Source: Chiloscyllium plagiosum
Taxonomy: Eukaryota
DNA: 52,649 nt
Direction: 5' to 3'
Assembly: GCF_004010195.1 (NCBI RefSeq)
Contig: NC_057753.1
Coordinates: 10,259,667 to 10,312,315 of the forward strand
The first letter of the stretch is position 1. Every line of letters starts with the position of its first letter. The position numbers and the translations under genes are program-made. This document shows, piece by piece, positions 1,981 through 47,552 of the stretch. The notes below the pieces were generated by a model. It saw nothing but the letters and a program-made list of their open reading frames with translations. It made no database searches and was not told where the DNA came from.

Positions 1981-2697
1981 GCTTGCCACTAATGTTTGCC
2001 ACGTCTGCCTGCTTCCACACTGTGGGGAATTCTCTGAAGGGAAGGGGTTTTTGGAAAGTGCATTCTCCTACCCTTCTGCCGCAGGGCAACGCATGCGCAG
2101 TGAGGGGGCCCGCTGACAGTCTTGCCCCGCCCCCTTGACGTCACTTTTCCTCGCCCCGCCCTTCGTTTCTTTAAGACGTCACAACGCGGACGTCGCCCTG
2201 TCAGCTTCAAAGTGAATCTCCCTCCCTCTGGGCAACTCCTCATCCTGGTAGGGAGCCAGAGATGGGAGGAGGGGAAATTGTTCACTTGCAGCAACTGGAG
2301 TGAACAGACTCCCCAAACTCAGGTATGTGTCTTAATTATCCGGGTGAGGAGGAACAGAAGGATCGACTTTGGGAAGGCGGAGGGGTAGATGGCTTTTCTG
2401 TTTTTATTTTTAAAATGCACCCGATTCCCACAAGTAACTGCAACATGCAATATTCCTCATTCCGCCTTGGTTTAACATATTCAGCTTCCTTCCCTCATTC
2501 CCACCTCTCTTCTCCCCCCCCCCCACCCCCGGCTCTAATGTTCAAGCTGACCCTCAAAAGATTGGTTTGTCCCTCCATTCTTTCCTGTTGTCTTTTGTGG
2601 GTTTTGAAAACTTTCCCAATCCTCTAAATTTTAAGAGTTGGGAAGTTGTGTAGCTGCACCAGACATTGGTTAGGCCACTTTTGGAATATTGTGCAGT

Positions 2698-2981
2698 TTA
2701 CAGTGTGGAAACAGGCCCTTCGGCCCAACAAGTCCACACCGACCCACCGAAGCGCAACCCACCCAGAAACCATTCCCCTACATTTAATCCTTCACCTAAC
2801 ACTACAGGCAATTTAGCATGGCCAATTCACCTAACCTGCACATTTTTTTGGAATGGATTGTGGGAGGAAACCCACGCAGACACGGGGAGAATGTGCAAAC
2901 TCCACACACAGTTGCTTGAGGCGGGAATTGAACCTGGATCTCTGGTGCTGTGAGGCTGCAGTGCTAGCCACCGTGCCGCCC
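2698..2981 (-). mobile_element. tRNA-derived V-SINE (HE1-like), duplicate of 1219-1502
   Basis: Near-identical to 1219-1502 and inside the tandem duplication. Confidence 0.88.
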
Positions 2982-3584
2982 AGTTCTGGCCTCTCTGCTG
3001 GAGGAAGTATGTTGTGAAACTTGAAAGGGTTCAGAAAAGATTGACAAGGATATTGTCAGGGTTTGAGCTAAACAGGGTGGGGCTGTTTTCTCTTGAGCAC
3101 TAGAGGCTGAGGGGTGACCCTACAAACTTTTATAAAATCATGAGGGGCATGCACAGGGTAAATAGATAAGGTCTTTTCCCTCAGTGGGTCATAGGTTCAG
3201 GGTGAAGGTGAGATTTAAAAGGAACCTAGGGGCAACTCCAGCAGGTGGTGGGTGCAAGGAATGAGTTGCCAGAGGAAGTGGTGATGGCTGGTACAATTAC
3301 AACATTTAAAAGGCATCTGGATGAGTATATGAATGGGAAGGGTTTAGAGGGACATGGGCCAAGTGCTGGCAGATGGGACTAGATTGATTTAGGATATCTG
3401 GTTGGCATGGACGAGTTGGACTGAAGGGACTATTTCTGTGCTGTATATCTGTGATTCTGGCTTGCCACTAATGTTTGCCACGTCTTTTATGTTCAGTTTC
3501 TCTCTGGTGTTGGAGTTAATGACTTGATGTCTCATTTTGCTCCCCACATCCTGGGGACATTAACCATTTCCTTTCTGGATGTTC

Positions 3585-4150
3585 TGATGATCCGGGTCAT
3601 CGGGTTTCTGCGATTGGTCAATAAACACATTTGGAAATGACTTTGTCAATCACACAAGCAATAGTTTATTCTTTGATACGGCCGGGTCGGTAGACTCTGA
3701 TCAGCCCAGAAGGATGAGTACTCCGAGACCACCAAAAGAATCAGCCAACTTTTACAGAGTTTGCATAGAGCTTATGTACATTGTTTATAGTCAGACATGG
3801 AACATGATCACAAATTCACAACCAATCAGATCCCACGATGTCCTCATCCACTATTGACTTAGTCTATCACAATTTCTTGTAAACAACCTGTTCTTGGAAT
3901 TGTATTTGTCCTGTCCGGTGGTTAGGGCTAAGCCGTTACTTCTGCGATTAATGGTTAAGTTCACATTGTTACTTCTGCATTTGCCATTTTTTTTCACCAG
4001 GTTTAAGTCAGTCTGTGGTTTCTTGTTCTGAGTCACCAGTATCTGCCTGACTCAGGTCAGACCAAGTTAGCCAAGCAGAAGCCATTTTGTGCAGCTCCTT
4101 CAGCCATTTTGTCCTACCTCCCAGATGCCCACATTCTCATTCCTCCCTTT
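3585..4150 (-). mobile_element. Retroviral 3' LTR with polypurine tract
   Basis: Minus strand has PPT AAAGGGAGGAA (4150-4140) immediately followed by TGAGAATG (4139), an inverted CCAAT (3822-3826), TATAAA (3789-3784), AATAAA (3670-3665) and a candidate end ...GATCATCA at 3585. It lies just downstream of env. Confidence 0.75.
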
Positions 4151-4367
4151 GATCGCACCGTGATCACTGAAAGGGAAGGCTAATCCAGACAAATGCCCTT
4201 CAAGGTGGTCCTGCCATCAACATCCTCTAGAGCAGCACCACCATCTTCGCAGCTCATCTGGTCATATTTATCATTGCCGTCATCAAATGTGGGTGAGCCA
4301 TCGGATCACAAAAGGAGCATCTTCTGGGGCAAATCTATATCACTAAGGGACCTCATAAGCTTAGCAA

Positions 4368-4960
4368 TTAAATACCTAACAATAGCAATACTGACAAACA
4401 GAGGAAAATTATTCTGACATACATAGCTAAATTGATAAGCCAATTGTACCAAGAGCCCGATCCCCAGTTTCCCCAACTGGTCCCTTCCAGGAACACCTTG
4501 TACCTTAGTAATATTGTCAGTGAGATTGGGAATGCCCATAATGCACTTATCTTGGACAATAGTGCAGTCTCCGCCTTCCCGGGCTAGTAGATAGTCTAAG
4601 GCATATCGATTCTGCATAGAGTAAAGACTCAGATCTGATAATCCCAGTTTAATCTGTTCCAGAGCCTCTTTAGTCTTATTTCCAAAAATGGTCAGGCTGC
4701 AAAAGAGTGAATTGTGGTTCTTTTGACTTATCACCCCTGCTGATTCTTCCAACCTCAGGGTACTTGGGAATCCCCAGTCTATCGAGTGTCCTTCCAGTTG
4801 GAGCAAGGCTGGCTGAGACCGACCGCTGCATCCTCCTCAGATGGAGGTTCCATCGACTTGTCCACTGACCAGGACAAGGTACTGTTGTGGGAACAAGGGC
4901 TCTGATAGTGAACATCTTATGGGGAACATCTTTGCCATCAATAATACAGATGGTGGTGGT
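4368..4960 (-). pseudogene. env: Endogenous retrovirus envelope remnant (SU C-terminus and TM), frameshifted
   Basis: Furin site RRMQR/S, heptad region, immunosuppressive domain QNRYALDYLLAREGG, CX6C motif CTIVQDKC, and in another frame a Trp-rich plus hydrophobic anchor WGNWGSGSWYNWLINLAMYVRIIFLCLSVLLLLGI. Confidence 0.9.
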
Positions 4961-4974
4961 GGGGGGGAAGAGGA

Positions 4975-5395
4975 GTGTGTGCACTTTGATCTTGAGCTGT
5001 TTAAAAAGCAGCCACTTTTTTTCTGCCTTTTTGCTGGGGGGATCTGAAGCTGTAACAAAGTTGGGTCACAATAAAGGTTACCTGAACTTACTCATTGGAA
5101 GCTTTGAGCCCCAAGAGGTTTTTGTTTTAAAGCTGCTCATTTCTTTCAGCCTCCTGCAGTAAGTTTCCAATGTCATGTATCAGATGGAGTAGTGAATGAG
5201 TAGCTAGTAAAAGCTGCTCACTTCTTTCAGCCTCCTGCAGTAAGTTTCCAATGTCGTGTATCAGATGGAGTAGTGAATGAGTAGCTAGTATCGTTAGAAA
5301 TTGTAAACCTTTCAGGAGTGCAGAGTGCATTGTTTCATCAGCATTGTAAAGTTTACTGGCAGCACCGGGAGCTGTGGGCTGTGTTCACTAAAAAC
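4975..5395 (+). other. Orphan zinc-finger-gene 3'UTR module with AATAAA (5070-5075)
   Basis: Homologous to the sequence downstream of the ZF ORFs at 12086-12400 (-), 35228-35580 (+) and 47285-47529 (+), sharing ctgaagctgtaa...caataaa.gttacctgaa. Confidence 0.8.
5129..5290 (+). repeat. 81-bp tandem duplication (2 copies)
   Basis: aaagctgctca...gagtagctagta at 5129-5209 and 5210-5290, with 2 visible mismatches. Confidence 0.95.
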
Positions 5396-11205: not shown

Positions 11206-11308
11206 GTAAATACTTAAATTGTTTTTACTGGCCAAGCAGAGGCCAATAGCCAAGTTTGGAACCCGTGAGGGTGGTCTCAACCGGGACCTTGGGTGACCAC
11301 ACTATAGG

Positions 11309-11392
11309 AGAAAGTGAGGACTGCAGATGCTGGAGATCAGAGCTGAAAATGTGTTGCTGGAAAAGCGCAGCAGGTCAGGCAGCATCCAAGGA
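11309..11392 (-). mobile_element. Penelope-derived terminal piece running into the assembly gap
   Basis: gtgaggactgcagatgctggagatcagagctgaaaatgtg... is the near-perfect reverse complement of 11005-11077. Confidence 0.75.
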
Positions 11393-12085
11393 NNNNNNNN
11401 NNNNNNNNNNNNNNNNNNNNNNNNNNNNNNNNNNNNNNNNNNNNNNNNNNNNNNNNNNNNNNNNNNNNNNNNNNNNNNNNNNNNNNNNNNNNNNNNNNNN
11501 NNNNNNNNNNNNNNNNNNNNNNNNNNNNNNNNNNNNNNNNNNNNNNNNNNNNNNNNNNNNNNNNNNNNNNNNNNNNNNNNNNNNNNNNNNNNNNNNNNNN
11601 NNNNNNNNNNNNNNNNNNNNNNNNNNNNNNNNNNNNNNNNNNNNNNNNNNNNNNNNNNNNNNNNNNNNNNNNNNNNNNNNNNNNNNNNNNNNNNNNNNNN
11701 NNNNNNNNNNNNNNNNNNNNNNNNNNNNNNNNNNNNNNNNNNNNNNNNNNNNNNNNNNNNNNNNNNNNNNNNNNNNNNNNNNNNNNNNNNNNNNNNNNNN
11801 NNNNNNNNNNNNNNNNNNNNNNNNNNNNNNNNNNNNNNNNNNNNNNNNNNNNNNNNNNNNNNNNNNNNNNNNNNNNNNNNNNNNNNNNNNNNNNNNNNNN
11901 NNNNNNNNNNNNNNNNNNNNNNNNNNNNNNNNNNNNNNNNNNNNNNNNNNNNNNNNNNNNNNNNNNNNNNNNNNNNNNNNNNNNNNNNNNNNNNNNNNNN
12001 NNNNNNNNNNNNNNNNNNNNNNNNNNNNNNNNNNNNNNNNNNNNNNNNNNNNNNNNNNNNNNNNNNNNNNNNNNNNNNNNNNNNN
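11393..12085. other. Assembly gap (N run)
   Basis: Run of n characters. Confidence 1.
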
Positions 12086-12494
12086 AAACGACACAGTACC
12101 TGCACTCCTGAAATATTTGCAATTTCCAACGATACTAGCTACTCATTCACTGCTCCATCTGATACACAACATTGGAAACTTAGTGCAGCAGGCTGAAAGA
12201 AATCAACAGGTTTAAAACAAAAACCATTTGAAGCTCAAAGCCTTCAATGAGAGTCTGAGCCCGGCGGTAAGTTCAGGTAACCCTTTATTGTGACCCAACT
12301 TTATTACAGCTTCAGATTTCCCCCCAGCAAAAAGGCGTAGAAAAAGTAGCTTTATTTAAAAAAAAAAACAGCTCAAGGTCAAAGCGCTCACACTTTCCTC
12401 CTTAACTTGTAGGAAGTATTGCCTCACTCAGCAATTTCAACGTATACTCTGTATCTAAGTAGGTTTCTCCCTACTCATTTGCTGGGGAGAGATC

Positions 12495-12790: not shown

Positions 12791-12825
12791 GCCGTCACTC
12801 CTTCAATCCCCCTGCTATGGCACGT

Positions 12826-13518
12826 GAACTTGCTGGTGCCTCTGCAGGTGGGAGAAGCAGGTGAATACCTTACTGCACCTGGGGCAGCTGGAGGGCCTAT
12901 CCATCATGTGGACCCGCTGGTGTTTTTGAAGTGCGATGGCCTGGGTAGAACATTTCCTGCACTCGGGACAACTAAAGGGCCTCTCCCCCGTGTGGGTCCG
13001 CTGGTGAGTCTAGATGTTGGAGGCCTGGGAAAAGCCCTTCCCGCACTTGGGCATCTGAAGGGCCTCTCCCCGGTGTGGGACCGCGAGTGTCTCAGCCGAG
13101 CAGAGGCCTGGGTAAAGCACTTCCCGCATTTGCAGCAGCTGAAGGGCTTCTCCCCCGTGTGGACCCGCCGGTGAATCAGCAGGGCAGAGGCCTGGGTAAA
13201 GGCCTTCCTGCACTCGGAGCAGCTAAGGGGCCTCTCCCCTGTGTGGATCCGTCGGTGGGTCAGCAGGTGGGAGGAATCACTGAAGGCCTTCCTGCACTCA
13301 GGGCAGGAGAGTGGCCTCTCCCCCTTGTGGATTCGCTGGTGCCTCAGCAGGGCGAAGGAATTGCTGAAGGCCTTCCCACACTCGGGGCAGCTGAAGGGCC
13401 TCTCCCCGGTGTGACTGTGCCGATGAGTCTCCAGAGCAGACGGGGCACGGAAGCCTTTCCCACAGTGGCCACACTTCCACGGTTTCTTCACGGGGCGGGA
13501 TTCCTCGGGTTTCTCCAT
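12826..13518 (-). pseudogene. C2H2 zinc-finger gene A, disrupted (5 in-frame fingers, then frameshift and stop)
   Basis: MEKPEESRPVKKPWKCGHCGKGF... with HTGERPF-type linkers. 1-nt deletion at ~13050 (tgccc-aagtgc), TAG at 13012-13010, then two further decayed fingers. Candidate acceptor tttttacag| at 13927 and AATAAA at 12289-12284. It could still encode a truncated 5-finger protein (stop at 12904). Confidence 0.85.
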
Positions 13519-13762
13519 GGCCAAAGCTTCAGCCGCACACAAACGCGGGTACTGCCCCTCCCTGCCGTGAATTCCTCTTTCCAGTCTGTATGACTGTTTC
13601 AGGCTCCACACTCAGTGCGCTGCAACGTAGGGTCTGTCATCTAGTCCCACTGATACTGAAAACGCACTCGAGCAGGAACCAAACGCTTTGCTCCTTCTCA
13701 CAGAATCACAATCAAAAACTGTTGCAGTCCCGATTTCCCAGTGTCACTGTCAGACATTGATG

Positions 13763-34392: not shown

Positions 34393-34744
34393 ATGGGAAA
34401 ACCTGGAAATGTGGGGACTGTGAGAAAAGGTTCCCTTCCCTATGATGCTGGAAACCCATACACACGTTCACACTGGGGAGAGGCCATTCACCCGCTCCAT
34501 GTGCAGACTGGGATTCAGTGAGGTAGGCCATCTGCAGATATGCCTGTGGGTCCATGTGGAAGAGAAGCCGTTCAAGTGCTCAGTGTGCAGGAATGGGTTC
34601 ACTCCGTCGTCTCCACTGCTGATTCACCAGCGGGTCCACACCGGAGGGAGGCCGTTCACTTGCTCTCTGTGTGGGAAGGGCTTCAGCCGCTCCTCCCACC
34701 TGCGGAGGCACCAGCGAGTTCCCGTGCCATCACAGGGGGTTTGA
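34393..34744 (+). pseudogene. C2H2 zinc-finger pseudogene B (4 finger remnants)
   Basis: The start is homologous to gene C but has two 1-nt deletions in finger 1. Finger 2 has lost Cys/His, finger 3 is intact, finger 4 ends HQRVP. Acceptor tttgcag| at 34064 and AATAAA at 35327-35332. Confidence 0.88.
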
Positions 34745-35066: not shown

Positions 35067-35579
35067 CTCATCCCTGCAAATAAGCGGGGAGAATCTTACT
35101 TGGAGACAGGGTATGGGTTGAAATTGCTGAGTGAGGCAATACTCCCTCTGGGTTAAGGCTGTACCAAGGAACCAATTACAAAGGGACAACTCAGCTGACC
35201 AATAGTAAAGGAAGTGGGGTGCAGGGGAGTGTGTGTGCTTTGAGTTTGAGCTGTTTCAAAAAAAAAAGCTACTTTTTGTGCACCTTTTTGCTGGGGAGAT
35301 CTGAAGCTGTAACAAAGTTGGGTTGCAATAAAAGTTACCTGAACTTACTGTCGGACTCCAACATTGAAAGCCATGAGATCCAACAGGTTTTTGTTTTAAA
35401 GCGGCTCATTTCTTTCAGCCTCCAGGGCGAGGTTTCCAATGTTGTATATCAGAAGGAGCAGTCAATGTGTAGCCTGTATTATTACAAATTGTAAATTTTT
35501 CAGGACTGCAGGTTCTTCGTTTCATTGGCATTGTAAAGTTTACTGGCAGCAGCTGGAGGTGTGGGCGGTTTTCATTGGA

Positions 35580-39429: not shown

Positions 39430-42400
39430 CAGATGTACAGCACAGAAACAGACCCTTTGGTCCAACTTGTCCATGCCGACCAGTTATTCCAATCTTGTCC
39501 TATTTGTCAGCACTTGGCCCATATCCCTCTAAATCCTTCCTAAATCCAGATTCCTTTTAAATGCTGTAATTATACTCGCCTTCACCACTTCCTCTGACTA
39601 GTCATTCCATACACACACCACTCTTTGTGTGAAAAAGCTGCCCCATGGGTCCGTTTTATGTCCACCCCCACCCCCACCCCCACCCCAAACCTATGCCCTC
39701 TAGTTCTGGACTCTCCCCATCGCAGGTAGAAGACTTTGTCTATTTACCCAACCATGCCCCTCTGTAAAGTCACCCCTCAGCCTTCGATGCTCCAGGGAAA
39801 ACAGTGCCAGCCTATGCAGCCTCACATGAGAGCGTAAGTCTTTCAAACTTGGCAACATCCTGGTAAATTGTTTTTGATCCCTTTCAAGTTTTACAACATC
39901 CTTCTGTTGGGAAGGAGACCAGAGTTGCATACAATATTCCAAACATGGCCTCACCAATGTCCTGCACAGCTGCAACATCACCTCCCAACTCCTTTACTCA
40001 ATGCTCTAACCAATAAAGGAAAGCATACCAAATGCTGCCTTCACTATCCTATCTATCTGCAACTCTATCTTCAAGGAGCTATGAACCTGCACTTCAAGGT
40101 CTCTTTGTTCAACAACACTCCCCAGGACCTTACCATATAGTGTATAGGTCCTACTCTGATTTGTTTTTCCAAAATTCAGCACATCACATTTATCCAAGTT
40201 AAATTTCATCATTCATGTACTTATCCAAATATCTTTCAAATGTTTTCACTGTACCTGCATCACTTCTTCCTCTGGACATTCGTTCCACACACAAATGACG
40301 CTCTATGGAAAACAAGTGGTGCCCCTCATGTTTTTTTAAAATCCTTTTCCTCTCTTCAAAATTTAGTCCCTTTTCTTGAATCCCCACCCCAGGGAAAGGA
40401 TGTCCGCTGTTCACATCTATATACCTCATAATTTTGTCATCCTCTAAAAGGTCACCACTCAACCTCCTCTGCTCCAGTGAGAAAAACCTCCAGCGTATTC
40501 ACCAAGATGTTAGGTGTATTCATATCCACTTATGATCTGTTCAATGCTGGTGCAGGCTCGAAAGGTTAAATGGCCTACTCCTGCTGCCAATTCTCACACT
40601 CCTAGTCCAGGACAGTAAGAGACCATTAAACACAGGAGCAGAAATTAGGCCTTTCAGCCATCGGGACTGCTCCGCCATTAAATCCTGGCTGATAAGTTTC
40701 TCAATCCCATTCACCCATTTTCTACCCATAACCCTCGATTCCACATGATACTCAAGAACCTATCTACCTCTGTTTTAAATATATTCAGTGACCTGGCCTC
40801 CACTGCCTTCTGTAGCAGTGAATTCCATATGTTCACCACTCTTTGGCTGAAAAGGTTTCTCCTTATACTTGTTCTAAATCACCTTCCCTTTACTCTAAAG
40901 CTGTGCCCTCAGGTCCTAATCTCTTCCCCCCACTCCCCCCACTCCCCAGGGAGACAGGATAGTGAAGAAGGCATTTGGTACGCTTTCCTTCATTGGTCAG
41001 AGCATTGAGTACAGGGTTTGGGAGGTCATGTCATGGCTGCACAGGACATAGGTTGGGCTACTTTTGGAATATTGTGTGCAATTCTGGTCACCCTCCTATG
41101 GAAGAATGTTGTGAAACTTGAAAGGGTTCAGAAAAGATTTACAAGGATATTTGCAGAGCTGTAGGGAGAGGCTGAATAGGCCAGAGATAATTTCCCTGGA
41201 GCATCGGGACCTGAGGAGTGACCTTATAGAAGTTTATAAGGAGTATGGATAGGGTGAATAGCCAAAATCTTTTCCCCAATGTAGGGGGAGTCAAAAACTA
41301 GAGTTTCGTGTGAGAGGGGAAAGATTTAAGATGGACCTGAGGGGCAATGTTTTCACGTACATTTATTGAATGAGCTGCCAGTGGAAGTGGTGGAGACTGC
41401 TACAAAATACAACATTTAAAAGGCACCTGGATGGCTATATGAATAGGAAGGATTTAGAGGGATGTGAGTCAAATGCTGGCAAGTGGACTAGTGTAGTTTA
41501 GGATATCTGGTCAGCGCAGATGAGTTGGACCGAAGGGATTGTTTCCGTGCTGTATGACTCTAATTGTCATCGGTGAAAGCAGAAGTGTCGTTGTGGAGAC
41601 TGGCCTTTCAGAGCAGCTTTCAAAGATGTTTTCCCTTCCTGGAGACAGAAGTTACTGTGAGATCTTTCAGTTGTGAGACAGCAACTGAGTGAGTGAGTGA
41701 GTACATCCTGGATTTTGGTGGAAAGTGGGAATTCATTGCACTGTGGGGATGAATTGCTTTAAGGTTTACCGGCAGTTAGTAAAGTGTGCTGAGCGGGGAG
41801 CTGAGTGTAAGGGTAGGTAGGTATTTTTATTTTAAACTAATTTTTTTCAGCCTCCAACATTTATTTCCAATGCTGTTCATCAGAAGGAGCGGTGGTATCG
41901 TTAGAAGCCTTACGAATTTCAGTACTGCAAGTATTGCATTGTTTAATCAGCATTGCAAAGGTTACTGGCAGCAGCGGGAGGTGTGGGCTGTCTTCACTAG
42001 AAATTATTAAGAAGTTGGATAACACACATACGAGAGTTGGACTTGTCTTTGGATTGGCAGAAGGTGGGAGGCTTTAGGGCAAACACAACTGCGGTAAATC
42101 ATAGAAGCCCTACAGTGTGGCAGCAGGCCATTCAGCCCATCGAGTCCATGCTGACCCCTCCGAAAAGCAAACACCCACCACCTTCACTATCCTGTCTACC
42201 TGCGACTCCACTGTCAAGAACTATGAACCTGCTATAGAGTCATGCAGCATGGAAACAGACCTTCGGTCTAACCAATCCATGCCGACAATAATCCCAAATT
42301 AAACTAGTCTCTCCTGCCTGCTCCTGGCCTGTATCCCTCCAAACATTTCCTATTCATGTACTTAAACAAATGTCTTTTAACTGTACCTGCATCCACCACT

Positions 42401-45616: not shown

Positions 45617-46366
45617 AGTTTAATTTATCAGTCCTACCTTGTTCTCTGCTTTATTCCTTCCTGCCCTGACTGTTTGACTCACTCCCTTTCCCAACTGTAG
45701 GTTGATCTCTTTCCTCACTATTTTCCTGGGACCCATTCCCCAACTTGCTCATTCAGCAACTTTACTGGCTTTCTTTCTGCAAGCAGTCTTGATATTTTAT
45801 TTTCATTCCTTGTTTCAGCACCTTTGTCGGCAGCTTATTCCAGGTCATTGTCACCTAAATAAAATTTTCCTCCATACACACTTAAGGCCATTTGGCTGCA
45901 TGAGGGTTTTCAGGCTTCTCTGTCCTGGATAATGTGTGATCAGCAAGCAACTGGCTGCTGATTTACAGGAATTGCCATCAATGCTGTTTATTTAACTGTA
46001 CTGACAGTGATCACTTATTTTGTGAATTTGTTTTTGCAGGAAGACATGTAAAAAGAAATTTGAAAGCACTTGATACATCAATTTCTGACAGAGCCCCTTG
46101 ATTCATTGGGACTTGAATATCAGCAACCATTCCAATTGAGAAGAAATGTTTGCTTTTGGCTGCTTGAGAGATTTTGGACACTGGTGCGGCAGGAAAAATA
46201 CTGAGATAACTGAGTGAGAGAGATTCGGTGCGCTGACTGTGGAGAGTGCTTCAAACCATTTTGTCAGCTTGGGAGATCAAAATCTCCCCCCTCATGGTGG
46301 GGAGAGACCGTGTACCCATTCTGTTTGTAATTTCAAACCCAGACTGACACAAGGAAAGCTCTCCCC

Positions 46367-47266
46367 ATGGGGAAACCGTGGAAATGTGGGGACTGTGGGA
46401 AAGGATTCCCTTCCCCTTCGGTGCTGGAAATTCACAGACGTGTTCACACCGGGGAGAGGCCGTTTGTCTGCCACCGTTGCGGGAAAGGATTCATTCAGTT
46501 GTCTCAGCTGCAGACACACCAGCGTGTTCACACCGGGGAGAAGCCGTTCACCTGCTCAGTGTGCGGGAAGGGGTTCGCGAATTCTTCCAACCTGAGGGCA
46601 CACCAGCGGGTCCACACTGGAGAGAAGCCGTACACGTGCTTGGTGTGTGAGAAGGGATTTGCTCATTCATCTGCACTGCTGAGGCACCAGCGGGTCCACA
46701 CTGGGGAGAGGCCGTTCACTTGTTCAGAGTGCGGGAAGACTTTCCGTCGTACGAGCAACTTGCGGAGGCACGAGCGGGTCCACACGGGGGAGAGGCCCTT
46801 CAGGTGCCCCGAGTGCGGGCAGGGGTTCAGTCAGATGAGTGACCTGCGTAATCACGAGCGGATCCACACGGGGGAGAGGCCCTTCACCTGCCCAGAGTGC
46901 GGGAAGACCTTCGGTCGTGTCGGTAACCTGCGGATGCACCAGCGGGTCCACACTGGGGAGAGGCCATTCACCTGCACCAAGTGTGAGAAGGCCTTCCGTC
47001 ATGTGGGCGACCTGCGGAGGCACCAGCGGGTCCACGCTGGGGAGAGGCCATTCACCTGCATTGAGTGTGGGATTAGATTCCAACATGAACGCAACTTACA
47101 GAATCACGAGTGGGAGAGGCCATTCACCTGCCCAGAGTGCGAGAAGGGATTCATTGATTCTTCCGGCCTGCTGACCCACCAGCAGGTCCACACGGGGGAA
47201 GAGGCCGTTCACCTGCCCAGAGGGTGGGAAGGGATTCAGTCATGTGAGCAATTTACAGCAGTATGA
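46367..47266 (+). CDS. Poly-C2H2 zinc-finger protein C (9 canonical fingers plus 1 degenerate; no KRAB/SCAN seen)
   Basis: 299-aa ORF with CX2CX12HX3H repeats and TGE(R/K)PF linkers. Finger 9 lacks its second His (HEWERPF) and an 11th finger is out of frame. Acceptor tttgcag| at 46039 and AATAAA at 47311-47316. Confidence 0.93.
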   Translation: MGKPWKCGDCGKGFPSPSVLEIHRRVHTGERPFVCHRCGKGFIQLSQLQTHQRVHTGEKPFTCSVCGKGFANSSNLRAHQRVHTGEKPYTCLVCEKGFAHSSALLRHQRVHTGERPFTCSECGKTFRRTSNLRRHERVHTGERPFRCPECGQGFSQMSDLRNHERIHTGERPFTCPECGKTFGRVGNLRMHQRVHTGERPFTCTKCEKAFRHVGDLRRHQRVHAGERPFTCIECGIRFQHERNLQNHEWERPFTCPECEKGFIDSSGLLTHQQVHTGEEAVHLPRGWEGIQSCEQFTAV

Positions 47267-47529
47267 GTGGGTCCATACGGGTGACTGAAGCTGTAATGAG
47301 GTTGGGTCGCAATAAAGGTTACCTGAATTCACCATCAGACTTGGACTCTCATTGAGAGCTGAGAGATCCAATGGGTTTTTGCTTGAAAGCTGCTCATTTC
47401 TTTCAACCTCCAGCACTAAGTTTCTAATGTCATGTATCAGAAGGAGCAGTAAATGAGTAGCAGAATTGTGAGAAATTATAAATTTTTCAGGAGTGTGGGT
47501 TCATTGATTCATCAGCATTGTAAGGTTTA

Positions 47530-47552
47530 NNNNNNNNNNNNNNNNNNNNNNN
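47530..47552. other. Assembly gap (N run)
   Basis: Run of n characters. Confidence 1.

Follow-up and report, generated by a model that had tools for sequence, protein, structure and literature searches.

Kinship between shark endogenous retroviruses (ERVs) and filoviruses is known already. Nino Barreat and Katzourakis (2024) placed ERV ectodomains of Chiloscyllium, Scyliorhinus, Amblyraja, Leucoraja, and Rhincodon as sister to the GP2 of Ebola-, Cueva-, Marburg-, and Dianlovirus (posterior 0.83), with Tapajos virus joined to lizard elements (posterior 1) in the same Bayesian tree (PMC11521997); the main text of that report makes no mention of a fusion loop, fusion peptide, cysteine, disulfide, CX6CC motif, or furin. 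The avian gamma-type (alpha-like) Env of ALV/ASLV possesses a cysteine-flanked internal fusion peptide near the furin site, an HR1 glycan, and an immunosuppressive domain (ISD) (PMC3758190). Cysteine-flanked fusion peptides, called bird-specific in 2013 (PMC3758190), have since been reported from frogs (AnERV3/6), caecilians, and Mabuya (10.1101/2024.07.05.601823) as well as from some mammalian ERVs (10.1101/2024.03.17.585361), and since Mabuya envs are cited with a CX5-7C motif (PMC12813294), the combination of a loop with CXnC may have a precedent there. Chen et al. surveyed the envs of cartilaginous fish, with CXnC subtypes, and marked alpha-type fusion peptides in Fig. 3 and S1 Fig. (10.1101/2021.11.23.469661), figures that may already include the shark family described below. 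In the literature searched, outside which most subscription papers fall, neither the loop nor the lack of a third cysteine was found described for shark envs; the loop-with-CX6C anatomy of the shark clade thus appears to be undescribed.

The window, that is, the whole stretch of 52,649 nt analyzed from Chiloscyllium plagiosum, carries at nt 4960–3585 on the minus strand a truncated, dead 3′ remnant of a multi-copy shark ERV. The features of the remnant given below lie on the minus strand. The C-terminal remnant of the env SU (nt 4823–4960), in which 20 of 46 residues were identical to those of the intact relative P0005 (BLASTP, E 1e-7), includes a conserved V-P-C-P block (nt 4894–4862) and ends with the furin site RRMQR (nt 4837–4823). 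It is followed by the first-cysteine block of TM, QPCSNWKD (nt 4788–4811; Cys codon nt 4805–4803), the predicted first anchor of a fusion loop, which is read in a frame different from those of both neighbors. A decayed fusion segment together with the start of HR1 (nt 4672–4791) was recognized by tblastn of 14 relatives, by PDB alignments to filovirus GP2, and by motif counts; it contains the stretch WGFPSTL...FCSLTIFGNKT, with the HR1 cysteine at nt 4701–4699 and an N-x-T site at nt 4680–4672. Next come the ISD (nt 4614–4570), a CX6C motif without the third cysteine (nt 4566–4543), the membrane-proximal region with the membrane anchor in a shifted frame (nt 4487–4371), and the cytoplasmic tail, again in the ISD frame (nt 4389–4309). 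The relative P0009 matched nt 4487–4416 (tblastn, E 1.6e-4) in a frame other than that of its ISD match. A purine run at nt 4150–4140, the polypurine tract (PPT), stands immediately 5′ of the TG of a 555-nt 3′ LTR (nt 4139–3585, TG...CA), which has a TATA-like motif (nt 3789–3784) and an AATAAA (nt 3670–3665). The order characteristic of a retrovirus, env followed by PPT and by an LTR with TG...CA ends and promoter and poly(A) motifs, was therefore present. The furin site, the QPCSNWKD block in its shifted frame, the stretch around the fusion segment, the ISD, CX6C, PPT, and LTR were all found where the initial annotation had reported them. The LTR occurs as a single copy within the window, in which neither a 5′ LTR nor a target-site duplication was found, and none of the 98 further minus-strand frames matched a retroviral Pfam family; no gag or pol was found, a result that for pol applies above the ORF thresholds.

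Because the furin site, the Cys block, and HR1-ISD-CX6C lie in three frames, the anchor is shifted, and the tail is read in the ISD frame again, the remnant contains four frame changes. Two of these had been proposed initially and stood up; the other two, around the membrane-proximal region and anchor, had gone unnoticed. The fusion segment of the window copy was several codons shorter than in its closest relatives and had a best 11-residue Kyte-Doolittle mean of 0.43, versus 1.08 to 2.01 in relatives; such a short, weakly hydrophobic segment is as expected for a decayed copy. The window copy makes no functional protein and contributes only another host record.

Upstream, env is cut at about nt 4962 by an unrelated dispersed repeat that is not part of the ERV (nt 4962–5394), with copies about 80% alike at nt 12133–12394, 35216–35574, and 47285–47529; in another delimitation of this high-copy repeat, its copies lie at nt 12100–12394, 35216–35574, 41824–42003, and 47285–47529. 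An 81-nt tandem duplication is located inside it (nt 5129–5290). Depth jumped at nt 5002, and in one single-cell poly(A) RNA run reads piled up at nt 5002–5149, with a mean depth of about 2,850 at nt 5002–5075, and poly(A) loose ends were observed behind nt 5064–5091; this pile-up and the loose ends indicate that copies of the repeat end transcripts somewhere in the genome. Over the env region the mean depth was below 5 in one single-cell RNA run, of which about 2 in 100 reads were taken. The whole ERV element was covered by DNA contigs of three organisms, mostly at 80% to 95% identity, which marks it as a multi-copy family, the summed contig depths not being equal to copy numbers. Among the indel and junction rows listed from other copies, none fell at the breaks near nt 4790–4820. 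A head-to-tail duplication of about 1,478 nt with 99.5% identity (nt 530–2006 and 2007–3485), either a recent duplication or an assembly artefact, ends 100 nt from the LTR. The remnant lies beside a zinc-finger gene cluster, with C2H2 arrays of 84-nt period at nt 12818–13611 (minus strand), 34459–34731 (plus strand), and 46331–47284 (plus strand), two of them confirmed by Pfam. Assembly gaps (runs of N) occupy nt 11393–12085 and 47530–47552, 716 bases altogether, and long open frames at nt 11250–12215 were rejected as artefacts of an assembly gap. A search of Rfam gave no matches.

The TM frame, P0001, matched Pfam TLV_coat (E 1.4e-5, above the cutoff) and Ebola-like_HR1-HR2 (E 8.1e-5, below the cutoff). 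A HMMER search over 1.84 billion proteins returned 98 matches, of which the best 14 formed one family that was later widened by profile search. Members whose source is named belong to Hemiscyllium ocellatum (73% identical), Heterodontus, Pristiophorus, Mobula, Rhincodon, and Chiloscyllium. When the TM frame was run in word-index protein searches, 0 of 917 and 0 of 117 candidates matched, and no related loci were found in metagenome or viral contigs. The closest relative of the window copy, P0003, lacks one loop cysteine and diverges upstream of the fusion segment. The complete member nearest to the window copy, P0005, is extended at its N-terminus by about 170 residues, which most members lack; its residues 7–101 weakly match residues 4–94 at the N-terminus of P0020, an ordinary gamma-type env with CX6CC (23% identity, pairwise E 0.001), a likeness that may reflect exchange of a receptor-binding domain between env classes. 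Under the name erythropoietin receptor isoform X1, P0179 (XP_048473945, Rhincodon typus, 703 aa) falls in one 90% cluster with the member P0120; it is probably either an exonised env or a gene model joined to one. Two further envs, the alpha-like P0060 and, from the snake Ahaetulla prasina, P0076, possess loop cysteines and a CX7C motif without the third cysteine.

Thirty-five family sequences were examined, of which five had no HR1 block and two fell short of the post-furin region, leaving 28 to be scored. Both cysteines, the one past the furin site and the one at the start of HR1, were present in 25 of the 28 (17 of 20 after collapsing 90% clusters), the other three being without one of them. 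The post-furin cysteine stands seven residues past a furin-type site and is separated by 40 to 44 residues from the HR1 cysteine, and the segment between them is hydrophobic and glycine-rich in intact members. The proposal of a shark ERV lineage with an internal-fusion-loop envelope was thereby upheld. Blocks taken from intact relatives were scored over all six frames of the window, and the SU-terminal block, containing V-P-C-P, ranked 1 of 105,234, the Cys block 2 of 105,252, and the furin block 3 of 105,270; the three follow one another as expected over a span of about 100 nt, the Cys block lying within one codon of the relatives' position after the furin site. Since the relatives keep both cysteines and the top-ranked blocks stand in the right order, the joining of the first cysteine to the rest through two frameshifts, as originally assumed, is borne out. 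An alternative cysteine in frame with the TM ORF (the 4836 block), tried as the loop anchor, was rejected at rank 2,840. The motif L-x-C-x5-N-x-T in HR1, initially taken as a marker of this envelope class, proved useful only in part: a cysteine near the HR1 position was found in 2 of 65 other gamma-type matches, whereas N-x-T was found in 52 of the 65, so that the cysteine is diagnostic and the N-x-T is not. HR1 N-x-T is indeed described as common in non-mammalian gamma-type envs (PMC9967133). By analogy with the systems above, a disulfide-clamped internal fusion loop is predicted for the family, in which the two cysteines are likely to be bonded. An AlphaFold model of the intact member P0118 was poor (mean pLDDT 46), and Foldseek with it gave no match at E ≤ 0.001, the top row being Marburg GP2 (E 0.36); neither result was given weight.

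Against the PDB, the first 42 rows for the TM frame were filovirus GP sequences (best E 8.6e-11), followed at a distance by MLV p15E (1.9e-3), reptarenavirus GP2 (4N21 ectodomain, 0.022), and ASLV TM (0.27–0.29), the direct similarity to the last two being weak. With the family profile, E was 1e-21 for filovirus GP and 3e-12 for the best chain from a retrovirus; 4N21 came out at 8e-11 and ASLV TM at 9e-4. The nearest ESM Atlas clusters were TLV_coat/Avian_gp85 (0.96) and filovirus GP (0.90), values that serve as a lead only. Over HR1-ISD-CX6C, the family shares 36% to 37% identity with filovirus GP2 (Ebola, Sudan, Marburg, Mengla, and Lloviu) and has the same C-x6-N-x-T register; the HMM matches begin at HR1, and the fusion-loop sequences do not align. 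The loop cysteines are spaced by 45 residues in Marburg, Mengla, Sudan, and Lloviu and by 38 in Tapajos. In a tree of the HR1-ISD-CX6C core (93 rows, 78 columns), from which 22 redundant or short ids had been dropped before cutting and 13 that could not be cut, the shark family joined filovirus GP2 with 98/91 support; with cysteines masked (57 rows, 75 columns, after removal of 36 long-branch or redundant rows) the support was 96/87. In both trees, built without ALV, Mabuya, and reptarenavirus sequences, the family was sister to the four mammalian-filovirus GP2s, and the window copy paired with the Hemiscyllium protein, nested in the shark family (97/89 in the masked tree). The TM thus groups with filovirus GP2 and not with ordinary gamma-type TMs, the outcome on which the initial annotation had staked its reading, and of the shared origin that it had suggested, the filovirus part, which these trees cover, receives support from them. 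The family is most likely the published cartilaginous-fish clade, as judged from the same host group, the same tree position, the linkage to LTRs, and the same kind of best viral matches (Marburg 6BP2_B, Mengla, Tapajos, and Ebola GP) (PMC11521997).

If the locus were instead a gamma-type env of the ordinary kind, its fusion peptide at the N-terminus, the first cysteine would be a chance product of another frame. The two frame changes needed in the window copy and the high frequency of HR1 N-x-T in other gamma-type envs would fit this; the rank and place of the Cys block, the retention of both cysteines in the relatives, and the rarity of the HR1 cysteine elsewhere refute it. An Env of that kind, with a cysteine-free N-terminal fusion peptide, a CXXC in SU, and CX6CC, is not what the family displays. 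Nor is the region at all likely to be a filovirus glycoprotein gene that became endogenised, as opposed to a retroviral env, a reading that the leading place of filovirus GP2 among the PDB matches might invite and that is largely refuted, because the PPT and LTR stand directly downstream, the TM nests in the shark family and not among filoviruses, the family SU profile did not match Marburg GP1 (E 26), and published elements of the same kind lie in LTR-flanked retroelements (PMC11521997). Somewhat unlikely, yet far less so than either of these, is that the loop is real and its nearest kin are the GP of Tapajos virus and reptile alpha-like ERV envs with CXnC and no third cysteine, the grouping with Ebola and Marburg having arisen artefactually from the shortness of the alignment and the length of the filovirus branch. 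The GP of this snake filovirus (YP_010798909) has, as the shark family does, loop cysteines with a short furin-to-cysteine distance, four TM ectodomain cysteines, both SU cysteines discussed below, and no third cysteine, its motif being CX7C, and its SU C-terminal strand is similar to that of the family. By hhalign the family aligned with it at E 7e-23 over 190 columns, versus 3e-16 over 120 columns for Marburg, across the SU/TM border and thus further N-terminal than Marburg (BLASTP with P0006: 30% over 209 residues). AU tests on the 75 columns rejected none of the topologies, whether shark with Tapajos and reptile sequences (p 0.336), all loop-type sequences together (p 0.402), or filovirus with Tapajos and reptile sequences to the exclusion of shark (p 0.269). 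However, both free trees join shark with filovirus with starred support and leave Tapajos GP without a resolved place, the published tree likewise joins shark with filovirus and places Tapajos with lizard elements, and Tapajos GP was not among the matches of an SU-only family profile at E ≤ 50, so that the case for SU kinship with Tapajos consists of motifs recognized by eye and of the extension of the TM alignment. Sister relationship to Ebola and Marburg GP2 is the more probable placement, though the AU tests do not set it above the alternatives.

The assignment to the filovirus and alpharetrovirus class made in the initial annotation holds for the loop cysteines but not for the third cysteine of CX6CC, which was missing from all 23 members reaching the motif as well as from the window copy and was present in 65 of 65 other gamma-type matches; the family is therefore not simply of the filovirus GP2/alpharetrovirus TM class. 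The alpha-like Env, which shares with all 14 family SU sequences the lack of CXXC, has CX6CC and the covalent bonding of SU to TM as part of its definition, and filovirus GP2 has CX6CC and a GP1-GP2 disulfide, whereas the shark family has CX6C. It is the third TM cysteine that forms the SU-TM bond of gammaretroviruses and of ALV (10.1101/2023.10.07.561363). Nine ordinary gamma-type matches have C-[WY]-x-C at the corresponding place in SU, and none of the 14 family sequences has it, that part of SU being absent from the window copy. With the third TM cysteine missing and no CWxC in SU, the canonical SU-TM disulfide is likely to be absent, as it is in Tapajos virus GP. Could SU and TM instead be linked by a non-canonical inter-subunit disulfide? 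The SU cysteine count is odd in 7 of 11 members, which would make an unpaired SU cysteine available for such a bond and gives no support for a clean all-intra-SU pairing; moreover, the inter-subunit bond of ALV uses a lone N-terminal SU cysteine (10.1101/2023.10.07.561363), and the first SU strand of the family, apparently the same strand, carries a single cysteine in 13 of 14 sequences. On the other side, the TM ectodomain has exactly four cysteines in 10 of 10 complete members, all of which the predicted loop and the CX6C ring would take up, and in P0005, the complete member nearest to the window copy, the SU cysteines number 12, an even count. Shark and Tapajos sequences carry the V-P-C-P cysteine as well as that of the first strand, P0060 carries neither, and this joint presence or absence suggests that the lone N-terminal cysteine may pair with that of V-P-C-P. 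We therefore regard a non-canonical link as improbable and favor a non-covalent association of SU and TM, which is the least certain part of the reading.

Taken together, the locus is very probably a dead copy of a shark ERV whose env fused membranes in the filovirus/alpharetrovirus way, through a predicted clamped internal loop, and likely did so without the canonical SU-TM disulfide. By analogy with EBOV and ALV (PMC3758190; 10.1101/2023.10.07.561363), furin would cleave at the SU/TM junction. Bonded to each other, the post-furin and HR1 cysteines would then present the hydrophobic segment as a loop, which would insert in the target membrane before HR1 and HR2 refold into the six-helix bundle of a class I protein; meanwhile SU and TM would be held together non-covalently, with the lone N-terminal SU cysteine possibly paired within SU. 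More tentatively, the ERVs of sharks and rays may constitute a distinct env class that combines a clamped loop and an ISD with the absence of an SU-TM disulfide, its partner cysteine in SU forming a bond within that subunit instead; this class would be common to Tapajos GP and some reptile ERVs and would be the closest retroviral relative of Ebola and Marburg GP2.

The origin of GP2 from a retroviral env has depended on the short HR1-ISD-CX6C core and is moderately supported (the posterior of 0.83 cited above), and the conserved pair of loop cysteines provides a second character outside that core. The range of loop-type envelopes is extended to cartilaginous fish, and, with the third cysteine missing, loop-type fusion is set apart from the covalent SU-TM link, although the two traits are usually presented as belonging together. 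Intact natural open frames in public shark genomes make both the loop and the missing link structurally testable. If the proposed class is real, GP2 would have been captured by filoviruses in its entirety, loop included, and the covalent link between GP1 and GP2 would have arisen, or disappeared, on more than one occasion.
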